IMG/VR virus record: IMGVR_UViG_3300031454_000241
Location: 61 to 64,060 of that record
From: a virus
Lineage: Duplodnaviria > Caudoviricetes
DNA: 64,000 bases
Strand: one strand, 5' to 3'
In this document: one piece after another, positions 52,397-55,687 of the stretch
How the letters are laid out: every line of letters starts with the position of its first letter
Numbering within the stretch: position 1 is the stretch's first letter
Notes under the pieces: model-generated
Seen by the model: only the letters and a program-made list of their open reading frames with translations
Databases searched by the model: none
Told to the model about the DNA's origin: nothing
Made by a program: the position numbers and the translations under genes

Positions 52397-52682
52397 GGGG
52401 TCGGGTCTCCTCGTGGTCGTGGCGGATGCGGACAGGGGGCGCGGGCAGGTCGGCGGCGGAGAGCGATCGCAGATTGAGCAGTGCGTACTCCCGAATCAAC
52501 GGGTTAAGGGCCACAACATCCCGCTGGTCGACGCAGAATCGAATGCGATACAACAGCGCCGTTCGCTCCCCGACCTCCGGTTGGACGGAAAGCAACCCGC
52601 TCCACACCGCCAGGTGCCGGGCGACGAACTCACCCGTGTTGGTCCAGTCGTCAGCCGATGCGGCGGCGGTCTCGAAGCTCAT
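52386..52682 (-). CDS. Hypothetical protein
   Basis: Start MSFETA is ATGA-coupled to the displaced methyltransferase terminus. Confidence 0.55.
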   Translation of the reverse strand: MSFETAAASADDWTNTGEFVARHLAVWSGLLSVQPEVGERTALLYRIRFCVDQRDVVALNPLIREYALLNLRSLSAADLPAPPVRIRHDHEETRPHEQ

Positions 52683-52786
52683 GCGGCATCGACGTCCGGG
52701 ATGAGCGACAGCAGCGACGGCTGGTCCCGTGATGCCAGGGCACGGTTCAGGGTTTGCTGACCCGATTTCCAGTAACTCGCTTTCAA
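52679..52786 (-). pseudogene. Displaced original 3' end of the methyltransferase gene
   Basis: LKASYWKSGQQTLNRALASRDQPSLL vs the functional LKESYFRSGIKNLGRALASRDQPSLL (19/26 identical). Confidence 0.85.
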
Positions 52787-52795
52787 ACATAACAA

Positions 52796-52804
52796 TGGTA
52801 TAAT
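52796..52804 (+). promoter_or_regulatory. Extended -10 promoter TGGTATAAT for the HNH gene
   Basis: Consensus TGnTATAAT in an AT-rich patch, 76 nt before the ATG. Confidence 0.65.
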
Positions 52805-52879
52805 TCGCGTGGGAATCCTTTTACCCGTCAGGGCAAACATCGTGCAACGACGTCTCACAAAGCGAAGGTATAGCCAAAA

Positions 52880-53428
52880 ATGGCAATGACGAAACTGCCG
52901 ACGGGTGTGATGAAGCCATGCGCTCACTGTGGAAAAGAGCGCTACTTTGCCCCATCGAACGCCCACCGTCTGTACTGCTCGACTGACTGTTACTGGGCGG
53001 CTCGATGGGGTTCGGATCGGCAGGAAGACCGAACCTGCCCCGTTTGTTCTACCGTCTTCAGGGTGCAGCTTTCGAAAACCCAAGTGTGCTGCTCGATTGA
53101 GTGCCGCCGCCAACACTACTCCAACATTCGGCGGGGAGAACAAAGTCATTTCTGGCGAGGTGGCAAGACCGCGCCATATCACACTGACTGGAAATCTGTC
53201 AGGCGAGAGGCGCTTGACCGAGACCATCACCAATGTGTCCTGTGTGGCGGGAACGATCGGTTGCAAGTCCATCACAAGAATCCTTATCGCTACTCCCAAT
53301 CTCACGCGCTTGACAATCTCGTGACACTTTGCCGGAGTTGTCATTCGCGCGAGGAATGGAAGGTCAATCCTCTCGTTGCTCAGGTCATGGCAGATGGACG
53401 CCTAGGCCGCATCCAATCTATCAAGTAG
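52880..53428 (+). CDS. Free-standing HNH homing endonuclease with N-terminal CxxC zinc-finger repeats
   Basis: CAHC...YCSTDC, CPVC...CCSIEC, RDHHQCVLCG...LQVHHK...DNLVTLCRSCH; antisense to the surrounding operon. Confidence 0.92.
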   Translation: MAMTKLPTGVMKPCAHCGKERYFAPSNAHRLYCSTDCYWAARWGSDRQEDRTCPVCSTVFRVQLSKTQVCCSIECRRQHYSNIRRGEQSHFWRGGKTAPYHTDWKSVRREALDRDHHQCVLCGGNDRLQVHHKNPYRYSQSHALDNLVTLCRSCHSREEWKVNPLVAQVMADGRLGRIQSIK

Positions 53429-55687
53429 TGACGGCTGGTCACGACTTGCGAGCGCCCTTCCGAGGTTCTTGATACCGCTCCGGAAATAACTTTCCTTGAG
53501 TTCGACCCCGACGAACCGGCGATTGAGCTGGAGCGCCCGATAGCCGGTGGAACAGATGCCGGCGAACGGATCGAGCACCAGATCGCCGGGGTTGCTCCAG
53601 AGCTTGACGGCCCGTTCGATCACGCCCAGTTGCAACGGGGCCAGGTGGCGCTCGTCGTCGGTCTCCCGCGCCTGCACGACGTTCAGGACGTCCGTCTCAC
53701 GGATGCCGTTGGCGCTGCGGAAGTCACCCAACCAGATTGGGGCGGCCCATTCGATCCATTCTTCCGGTGTGATCCAGCCGTTGGGGTTGCCGTACTTGGC
53801 CGAGATGCCGGCCCGGATCGGATCCGGGTTGTCGCCGGGCTTGCGAAACTGCACCAGGTAGTCGGCCAATGCCATGTGCATGTTGGCGCTGTCGGTCGCC
53901 AACGTCTTGAACAAGAGTCCGCGGTCCTTGGTCCGGATCGCCTTGAGCTGCGGATTCTTGTCGATCGTCACCTCGCCGTAGTAGATCCAGCCAACCGCTT
54001 CCATCGCCGATATCACCCGCCCCCGGAAGTCCTTGATGCCGATATAGCCGTCGGTGCCCTTGAACGCCACCGCCTGCGTGAGATGGATGGCGCACGTCCG
54101 GCCCGGCATCGTCACCCGCAGCAGTTCCGACATCATGTATCGGAGCTGTTCCATCAGTTGGTCGATTGATGTGCAGTTGCCGATGTCGTGCGGGCTATTA
54201 TTGTAAACATACATCCCGGGGAAAGGCGGAGATGTGACGATCAACCCGACGCTGTTGTCGGCGATGCGGTCGGGATCGGCCAGCACCTTGACGCTGTCGC
54301 CGAGGTACAGGGTCCAGTCCGGCCCGGTCGCCACGTCCTCACGGTAGGCCGTCTCGTTGCGGACCGATCCGGTGATCTCGTGTTCGATCGCCATGTGCTT
54401 CACCACCTCCGCCATCATCTCGGCCGCCTGCCGCTCCTTGCGCTCGATGTTCCGCACCACCGCGCCCTCGGTCTCGGCTGTGATGACGTGGGCCACAACG
54501 GGCTGTGTCTGGCCGAATCGCCAGCAGCGGCGCACGGCCTGAAAGTACTGCTCCCACGAATCGGAGAGCCCCACGAACACCATCCGGGCACAGTGCTGAA
54601 GGTTGAGCCCGAACCCGGCGATGGTCGCCTTGCTGACCAGCACCCGGTAGGTGCCGTCGAGGAACCCGGCGATGGCCTGCTCCTTGTGCTCGATGGAATC
54701 CGACCCCGTGACCTGAATCGCGCCGGGGATCGCCCGGGTCATCGCCTCGGACTCCGCATTGAGCTGGGTCCAGACGATCCACGGCTGATCGTCGGAGTTG
54801 ACCAGCGCGGCGGCCATCGCCACGCGCTCCCCAATGGAGTCCCGCCGGGCCTGCTGACGCTCCTGCAACGTGATGGCGTCGATGGGGATCAGCGTTCCGG
54901 TCGTGATCGCCCCGGAGACCGTGTGCTGTTCGATCGTCAGGGGTGGCAGCGCGAACCCGTCATCGGCGAACCCCAGGTCTGACGGAGCCCGGACCGCCAC
55001 CGACCACGACGCCAGCCACCGCCAGAAGTCCGCCTTTGCGTGGCCCTTGAGCCGCCAGTCCTGCGCGGAATTGCCGTCCTGCGTGAAGAACAGCGCCTTG
55101 ACCTCCTTGACCTGCATCACCCCGAGGAACTCGGCATGGTTGGCCAGCTCGACCAGATCGTTGGGCGCCGGGGTTGCGGTACAGGCCAGTCGGTACGGGA
55201 TGTCCCGGACGAAGACGTTGAGCTGCTGGCGGATGGCCGAGTCGAGCCCCTTGATCGCGGACGATTCGTCCAGGACGATCGCGCCGAACGCCGCCGGGTC
55301 GAACAGGTGCAGACGCTCATAGTTGGCGATGGTGATGCCCGGTCGGACATCGGCGGCACTCCGGGCAATCGTGACATCAAGCCCAATGGTCCGGCCCTCG
55401 GCGACCGTCTGCTGACCGACCGCCAACGGCGCAAGGATCAGGACGTTTCGTCCGGTTCGAGCATGGATGTGCCGCGCCCACTCCAGCTGCATCGCTGTCT
55501 TGCCGAGGCCCGTGTGGCAGAAGAACGCCGCTCGGCCTCGCCCGATGCCCCAGCGCACGATCCGGCGCTGGAACGGGAACAGACGATCATGGAGATCGTC
55601 CTCGGCGACGTCGAATCCCACCGGATCCGAGAAGATCCGCTTCGACTGCAAGAAATCCCTGTAAGAGTCGACTTGGCTATGCGGCAT
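53402..55687 (-). CDS. SNF2-like helicase / DNA (N6A/N4C) methyltransferase fusion
   Basis: HTGLGKT, LDESS, ACTATP, QAVRRCWRFGQ (SF2); VTSPPF and VLDPFAG (MTase); single open frame. Confidence 0.9.
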   Translation of the reverse strand: MPHSQVDSYRDFLQSKRIFSDPVGFDVAEDDLHDRLFPFQRRIVRWGIGRGRAAFFCHTGLGKTAMQLEWARHIHARTGRNVLILAPLAVGQQTVAEGRTIGLDVTIARSAADVRPGITIANYERLHLFDPAAFGAIVLDESSAIKGLDSAIRQQLNVFVRDIPYRLACTATPAPNDLVELANHAEFLGVMQVKEVKALFFTQDGNSAQDWRLKGHAKADFWRWLASWSVAVRAPSDLGFADDGFALPPLTIEQHTVSGAITTGTLIPIDAITLQERQQARRDSIGERVAMAAALVNSDDQPWIVWTQLNAESEAMTRAIPGAIQVTGSDSIEHKEQAIAGFLDGTYRVLVSKATIAGFGLNLQHCARMVFVGLSDSWEQYFQAVRRCWRFGQTQPVVAHVITAETEGAVVRNIERKERQAAEMMAEVVKHMAIEHEITGSVRNETAYREDVATGPDWTLYLGDSVKVLADPDRIADNSVGLIVTSPPFPGMYVYNNSPHDIGNCTSIDQLMEQLRYMMSELLRVTMPGRTCAIHLTQAVAFKGTDGYIGIKDFRGRVISAMEAVGWIYYGEVTIDKNPQLKAIRTKDRGLLFKTLATDSANMHMALADYLVQFRKPGDNPDPIRAGISAKYGNPNGWITPEEWIEWAAPIWLGDFRSANGIRETDVLNVVQARETDDERHLAPLQLGVIERAVKLWSNPGDLVLDPFAGICSTGYRALQLNRRFVGVELKESYFRSGIKNLGRALASRDQPSLLDRLDAA

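Follow-up and report, generated by a model that had tools for sequence, protein, structure and literature searches.

In fungal mitochondria, mobile open reading frames (mORFs) are known to make "gene hybrids", as described for atp6 of Allomyces macrogynus (Paquin, Laforest and Lang 1994, as cited in PMC3630166) and for atp6, atp9, cox2, and nad3 of Glomus (PMC3630166). In Glomus, the inserted gene ends are 64-81% identical in DNA and the proteins are conserved (PMC3630166). Partial C-terminal duplications of atp6 and cob have also been found beside free-standing homing endonuclease genes (HEGs) (PMC6279837, PMC7487136). In T4-like phages, free-standing homing endonucleases such as SegF, SegG, and MobE are linked to "intronless homing" (PMC2988022, PMC2790892). 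Finally, the DNA methylases of actinophages are targeted by an intein, by a LAGLIDADG HEG, and by a "hidden", out-of-frame HNH endonuclease of the ShiLan type (PMC11855218, PMC9957025), and a 2025 paper stated that HNH endonucleases were not yet known to associate strongly with methylases (PMC11855218). The present text is concerned with a provirus of the IMG/VR database (record IMGVR_UViG_3300031454_000241), of which a stretch of 64 kb, hereafter called the window, was analyzed. In this window, an HNH endonuclease gene and a second version of a gene end are found within the 3′ part of a gene coding for a helicase-methyltransferase.

It is highly probable that this arrangement is a free-standing HNH homing-endonuclease cassette and that it occupies the coding sequence of a phage methyltransferase with the help of neither an intron nor an intein. 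The genes of this part of the window are all on the minus strand. In the product of the host gene (53402..55837, minus strand), an SNF2-type helicase and an N6_N4 DNA methyltransferase are fused (Pfam PF01555, E = 2e-20; Helicase_C, E = 1e-7). The live end of the gene reads ...VELKESYFRS...DRLDAA*, with a TAG stop codon at 53402-53404. A second end, LKASYWKS...DVDAA*, is located further downstream (52679..52786, minus strand; 35 codons and TGA), and its TGA (52681-52679) overlaps, as ATGA, the start codon (52682-52680) of the gene that comes next in the operon (52386..52682, minus strand), which encodes 98 amino acids and has no family match. The similarity of the two tails is clear, with 19 of 26 residues identical by BLASTP (E = 1e-12), and the pair shows about 53% nucleotide identity for 67% amino-acid identity. 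This second end, the native tail, persists as an untranslated orphan. Between the two tails, the HNH gene (52880..53428, plus strand; 182 amino acids; Pfam HNH, E = 6e-9) runs antisense to the methyltransferase gene and overlaps its 3′ end by 27 nucleotides. It is preceded by an extended -10 promoter box, TGGTATAAT (52796..52804, plus strand), located 9 nucleotides inside the end of the cassette and recurring in homologous cassettes. All these elements, namely the orphan end with its stop overlapping the next ATG, the antisense HNH gene with its promoter, and the overlap of the HNH stop with the new terminus, had been pointed out in a previous sequence-only reading, and they were found again at the positions given there.

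The whole cassette covers 714 bp (52787..53500) and comprises the replacement tail, the HNH gene, its 5′ leader, and the promoter; its limits are given by an HNH-free allele, by a drop in GC content, and by the GC content at third codon positions (GC3). It directly follows the Glu codon of a conserved F-V-G-V-E sequence of the methyltransferase. This Glu belongs to motif II of the beta-class amino-methyltransferases, which binds the ribose of S-adenosylmethionine, and the displaced segment is the motif III helix. The junction is placed 8 positions inside the methyltransferase Pfam domain, and the replacement 3′ end (53402..53500, minus strand; 32 codons, L780-A811, and the TAG) covers these final 8 positions of the domain (the motif III helix). 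Thus, the cassette supplies an in-frame substitute for the last 32 codons, and the host gene stays whole.

The fungal mORFs are the closest precedent of the cassette. As in their case, an endonuclease open reading frame is found near the 3′ end of a conserved gene and brings an in-phase C-terminus that is diverged in DNA and similar in protein, with the native C-terminus persisting further downstream as a remnant, both in the window and in ten further contigs. The degree of divergence is also reminiscent of the mORFs, since the orphan region of the window is 94% identical to an empty allele (described below) and the new tail is only about 53% identical in DNA to the orphan. However, the nuclease is here an HNH enzyme, whereas those of the mORFs are of the GIY-YIG or LAGLIDADG type. 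Furthermore, the HNH gene is on the opposite strand with its own bacterial -10 box and is out of phase with the host gene. The cassettes occur in phages and prophages of bacteria, and they target motif II of DNA amino-methyltransferases. With the Seg and Mob endonucleases of T4, the nuclease of the window shares a free-standing gene, a position between or next to conserved genes, and a sporadic occurrence, the T4-type enzymes spreading by break repair with co-conversion of the flanks; like MobE, it belongs to the HNH class. In contrast with these enzymes, which are intergenic and leave no duplicated gene end, the insertion is inside a catalytic domain and is compensated by a replacement end. 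As for the ShiLan-type HNH, the homing target is an orphan methylase gene of a phage and the HNH is found at a conserved site of the methylase. Yet the ShiLan HNH shares the strand of its host gene, has no stops in the host frame, which reads through it, and is kept in the protein, whereas the HNH of the window is antisense, the host frame stops at the new TAG (53402-53404), and the displaced end persists as an orphan. Full-text searches of a literature library retrieved no phage report of a cassette carrying a replacement terminus.

The main evidence for an insertion comes from a cassette-free allele. The window stretch is present in rock-metagenome runs of two studies, and the contigs of these runs were aligned on positions 51500-54800. 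The occupied form is present in runs X1 and X2, and only short pieces of low depth were obtained from run X3. One contig from a rock metagenome of the other study (run X4; 17,360 bp, depth 119.5) is without the cassette. It shows 134 differences with positions 53505-54800 (about 90% identity) and 23 differences with positions 52398-52786 (94% identity), and it skips the 718 bases 52787-53504, in place of which CTCC is found. On the coding strand, the joint reads TTC GTC GGG GT-G GAG-TTG AAA GCG AGT TAC, or F V G V E L K A S Y, in frame. Therefore, the methyltransferase of this relative runs directly into the orphan-type tail of the window. Because this allele lacks the insert and ends in the orphan-type tail, the orphan would be the ancestral end, and the HNH gene together with the new tail would be the insert. 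If the homologous Val and Glu codons are allowed for, the insert corresponds to 52787-53500 (714 bp). A 244-bp contig of X2, a run belonging like X4 to the second study, is identical to part of the HNH gene; the occupied form thus also circulates in that study. The two forms therefore represent a presence/absence polymorphism at one exact site between close relatives. The codon at position 52752 is AAC (Asn) in the empty allele and ACC (Thr) in the orphan. Since this Asn belongs to an N-L pair conserved in the family, the orphan has lost a conserved residue, which is possibly a small sign of decay in the displaced end. The claim of the sequence-only reading that the orphan is ancestral agrees with these data, as does its proposal that relatives devoid of 52787-53500 should carry the LKASYW-type end and not DRLDAA, the X4 contig being 90-94% identical to the window.

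The alignment further argues against a one-off scar, in which illegitimate recombination would have inserted a foreign piece that happened to contain a methyltransferase 3′ end and an HNH gene, the HNH having no role in the event. Phage genomes are mosaic and the composition of the insert is foreign, as such a scar would have it, but the presence/absence polymorphism is exact and the same layout is found with a homologous HNH in ten other contigs, at the same codon in eight of them. The recurrence of the layout already disfavors this explanation, which we regard as extremely improbable.

This recurrence was established from the relatives of the HNH protein. For the window protein, which has a further record on a 724-kb contig, 37 relatives were found at 42-56% identity. 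A single-protein search of viral contigs gave no close HNH relatives; alignment-based scans did find homologs, with 377 genome hits in one of them. The DNA contexts of these homologs were searched for a copy of the tail of the neighboring gene on the far side of the HNH. In 12 of the 17 other contexts examined, the HNH gene is at the 3′ end of an N6_N4_Mtase gene; in 11 cases the two genes are convergent and usually overlap, and in the twelfth (the contig of protein P0037) they are on the same strand. The succession of new tail, antisense HNH, promoter, and orphan is found in ten contigs besides the window, with HNH homologs at 33-56% identity. Nine of these cassettes are in methyltransferase genes, eight of them cut at the same codon, and one is in the gene of an IstB/DnaC-like ATPase. 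The orphan tails (L083, L085, L088/L089, L090, L091, L102, L104, L182, and L185) are on the strand of the host gene, about 10-120 nucleotides from the start of the HNH gene. They were accepted on position, strand, frame, and motif register, the flank-versus-flank score being weak when taken alone (the cross-locus null reaches 92). With the window included, there are 11 methyltransferase cases, and in 9 of them the first codon of the orphan is the one that directly follows the Glu of F-[IV]-G-[IV]-E. In the ATPase case (L086/L087), the orphan (RIREYCDG..., facing the live tail RIRENCLG...) also begins after V-E. There, the HNH gene (P0036) is antisense at the 3′ end of the ATPase gene (L086:4803-5728, and L087) and the junction follows G-V-V-E, which resembles the methyltransferase target. 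From its sequence, this case suggests a switch of host gene. Together with the empty allele, the ten other contigs give substance to the central proposal of the sequence-only reading, that an HNH element invaded the 3′ end of the methyltransferase gene and supplies a replacement C-terminus. They also reveal a previously unrecognised association, that of one HNH family with the motif-II codons of N6/N4 methyltransferase genes.

The repeated linkage of this HNH family, in convergent orientation, with N6_N4 methyltransferase genes could also be understood if the two genes formed a functional pair, that is a restriction-modification-like or anti-restriction module in which the HNH would not be a selfish invader. 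Convergent gene pairs of restriction-modification systems as well as HNH-type restriction enzymes exist, and McrA is among the nearest folds of the HNH protein. However, a functional pair leaves unexplained the duplicated gene ends, the fixed insertion codon, and the existence of an allele that has an intact methyltransferase and no cassette. The architectures of the partner methyltransferases are unrelated, their lengths going from 245 to 811 amino acids (245 to 492 for those found beside the other HNH homologs), one cassette is in an ATPase gene, and 80 relatives of the methyltransferase do without the HNH. A functional pair thus appears very unlikely. The latter relatives are viral loci with the same helicase-methyltransferase, and the HNH family is absent from the 3′ end of the methyltransferase in 80 of 80; judged from sequence, such a sporadic distribution would be expected of a homing element. 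The closest relatives of the methyltransferase itself are 69% identical among viral contigs and 78% identical among 5.8e9 proteins, and neither tail type is found in them. Similarly, the downstream genes of the window are in none of the viral loci with the same helicase-methyltransferase, and pattern scans of metagenome and viral contigs gave no match to the codons of LKASYWKSGQQ or to any spelling of a 12-residue run shared by the two tails.

The cassette has the attributes of an autonomous unit. The N-terminal part of the HNH protein contains two CxxC...YCSxxC zinc-ribbon-like repeats, which are likely DNA-binding modules, followed by an HNH domain of the McrA/GVE2 type. In an alignment of 37 family members, all 33 invariant columns are kept in the window protein, including D115, H131/H132, N146, H155, and both CxxC pairs. 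The predicted structure is confident (predicted local distance difference test, pLDDT, 87) and has fold matches that include the GVE2 HNH and McrA and, on this model, the nuclease domain is of the McrA/GVE2/Cas9 type and is not I-HmuI-like. The catalytic motif (beta-beta-alpha-metal) is present and intact, and nuclease activity is predicted. As regards expression, TGGTATAAT is the sole match to TGNTATAAT in the 64-kb window, for 0.13 expected. A two-hexamer promoter scan was empty because the promoter has no -35 element. A -10 box stands a few bases inside the orphan-side end of the cassette in 9 of the 10 cassettes listed (the window and 8 homologous ones). Examples of these boxes are TGGTATAAT in the window and in L185, TGGTATACT in L083, and TTGACA-17-TATAAT in L088. 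In the window, the promoter is followed by a leader of 75 nucleotides. In other cassettes (L085:3369-3410, L088:2753-2795, L091:2967-3005, and L102:1407-1430), the -10 box is 6-8 nucleotides before the HNH ATG, and this spacing suggests that HNH transcripts would be leaderless in several of them. Neither an intron nor an intein was detected, as had been anticipated: no Rfam match was obtained at E<=1 in 52300-53900, a Pfam domain scan of the host protein revealed no intein or Hint domain, and the host frame terminates at its own stop codon without a splicing element.

The composition of the insert is foreign, and it links the new tail to the HNH gene. The GC content falls from about 0.66 outside to 0.47-0.58 over approximately 52750-53500, and this drop is limited to the insert. 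Along the methyltransferase gene, GC3 goes from 0.8-0.9 to 0.4-0.67 in the last 30 codons. In the window, GC3 is 0.58 for the new tail, 0.60 for the HNH gene, and 0.87 for the host gene, the orphan (0.69) being in between. In L088, the new tail (0.36) is close to the HNH gene (0.40) and the orphan and the host gene have the same value (0.61). In L086, the values are 0.64 for the orphan and 0.67 for the host. The orphan follows the host gene where the two compositions clearly differ. Since GC3 of the new tail tracks that of the HNH gene and GC3 of the orphan mostly tracks that of the host, tail and nuclease travel as one unit.

The two tails are also spelled differently. In the window, 15 of the 22 residues common to both use different codons, four of which differ by two or three bases, and the switches include AGY/TCN for serine and AGG/CGT for arginine. 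When five cassettes are pooled, the same codon is used at 17 of 70 shared residues. Independent draws from the codon usages of HNH gene and host gene predict 22.0 +/- 3.7, and ordinary methyltransferase orthologs (56-70% amino-acid identity) share 38-61% of such codons. Codon sharing between the tails is therefore at the level of independent draws and below that of orthologs, which means that synonymous sites are fully saturated. The synonymous recoding put forward in the sequence-only reading is thus borne out as to the codon differences, but these do not go beyond what independent codon choice would give.

Taken together, these observations can be arranged into a mechanism. The HNH enzyme would cut cassette-free alleles near the G-[IV]-E codons, a target deduced from the insertion sites. 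The break would be repaired from a cassette-bearing genome, and the cassette would be copied in during repair. The homology arms would be the upstream gene body on one side, and the orphan with the downstream gene on the other. In such a scheme, the differently spelled tail would have two effects: it would keep the left junction from rebuilding the full target, and it would block the loss of the cassette through recombination of one tail copy with the other. The element probably arose when an HNH gene located just downstream of a donor methyltransferase was copied, together with the gene end of the donor, into a relative that had diverged; the join on the far side would have been illegitimate. 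L183 and the contig of P0037, where the HNH gene is just downstream of the methyltransferase, may show this state.

The same two contigs may be read differently. It may be imagined that there is no discrete cassette and that, as in classic intronless homing, the normal place of the HNH gene is just downstream of a methyltransferase gene that is intact. Each orphan would then arise anew from a break in a diverged recipient, repaired on the gene side through homologous invasion and on the other side through an illegitimate join. The HNH at the methyltransferase end of L183, without a detectable orphan, and that of the contig of P0037, after the methyltransferase on the same strand, would fit this possibility. 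Moreover, relatives differ in the genes that follow the methyltransferase, so that the right-hand homology arm would often be lacking, and a mechanism of this kind is a likely way for a new host gene, as in the IstB-like case, to gain a matching tail. Against it, both junctions of the window are at one codon boundary when judged from the empty allele, the orphan begins at the same codon in most methyltransferase cases (9/11), a regularity that variable resection would blur, and the promoter is a fixed few bases from the end of the cassette. Independent formation of each orphan is therefore considered unlikely. The free-standing cassette, which remains the preferred explanation, has nevertheless several points to its debit. 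The empty allele is known from contig alignment tables, and there may have been a co-conversion tract, or a precise loss as opposed to an ancestral absence. Cleavage of the empty allele by the HNH and resistance of the new junction are predictions from sequence. No orphan was found in L183, where the HNH is at a methyltransferase end, and no host gene was recognised in the contexts L084, L092, and L184. Selection for extra recoding was considered and set aside as unproven, the 17 of 70 shared codons being within 1.4 standard deviations of independent draws and the divergence no greater than with independent codon choice. Finally, the 12-residue run identical in both tails of the window (8 of 12 codons differing) is in no relative, and a simple foreign-donor model does not account for it. 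The L102 tails behave likewise, with 12 identical residues and 9 codons changed.

Beyond the locus itself, we lean slightly towards a broader proposal, in which such "bring-your-own-terminus" cassettes would be a general third route, beside introns and inteins, for homing endonucleases into the genes of prokaryotic viruses. The HNH family would be specialised on the motif-II G-[IV]-E codons of amino-methyltransferases, with the capacity to jump to look-alike sites. The saturated re-spelling, visible in the 12-residue identical runs of the window and L102, where nearly every third base is changed, would be kept by selection against self-cleavage and against repeat-mediated loss. The cassette would mean that the catalytic core of a bacterial-virus gene is open to a homing endonuclease that carries a spare gene end and has no splicing machinery. 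For annotation and phylogeny, the 3′ end of a gene may be of foreign origin when an HNH gene adjoins it, and a short "intergenic" stretch may be a native end that was displaced. With its promoter, nuclease, and recoded homology arm, the compact cassette resembles an engineered gene drive or a knock-in donor and might serve as a phage-editing tool. The empty and occupied alleles are a ready substrate pair for a cleavage assay.

Some minor features of the locus and of its relatives may be added. The longest open reading frame of the host methyltransferase corresponds to 811 amino acids and the public gene call, which starts at 55687, to 761; the start is probably at 55687. Beyond the TAG, the frame of the methyltransferase meets no further stop over 240 codons, crossing the antisense of the HNH gene and reaching into the orphan (52679-53404, minus strand), and the length of the insert is a multiple of 3. 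A read-through design of the host frame was considered and rejected: of the 11 cassettes, only 2, that of the window and that of L102, have such an open frame, so that this feature is probably due to chance. In L084 (7195-9010), a P22-type portal gene is called in two pieces, probably as a result of an assembly frameshift, and the HNH context of this contig may therefore be an artefact of sequence quality. L053 was discarded as a member of the family, since it has a different small HNH on the same strand (5420-5700), directly after the stop of the helicase-methyltransferase, without a duplicated tail. In L062, L069/L071, and L078, 500-750 additional bases are present within the match to the methyltransferase half; these are probably other insertions, by an intein or another element, inside the same gene family.

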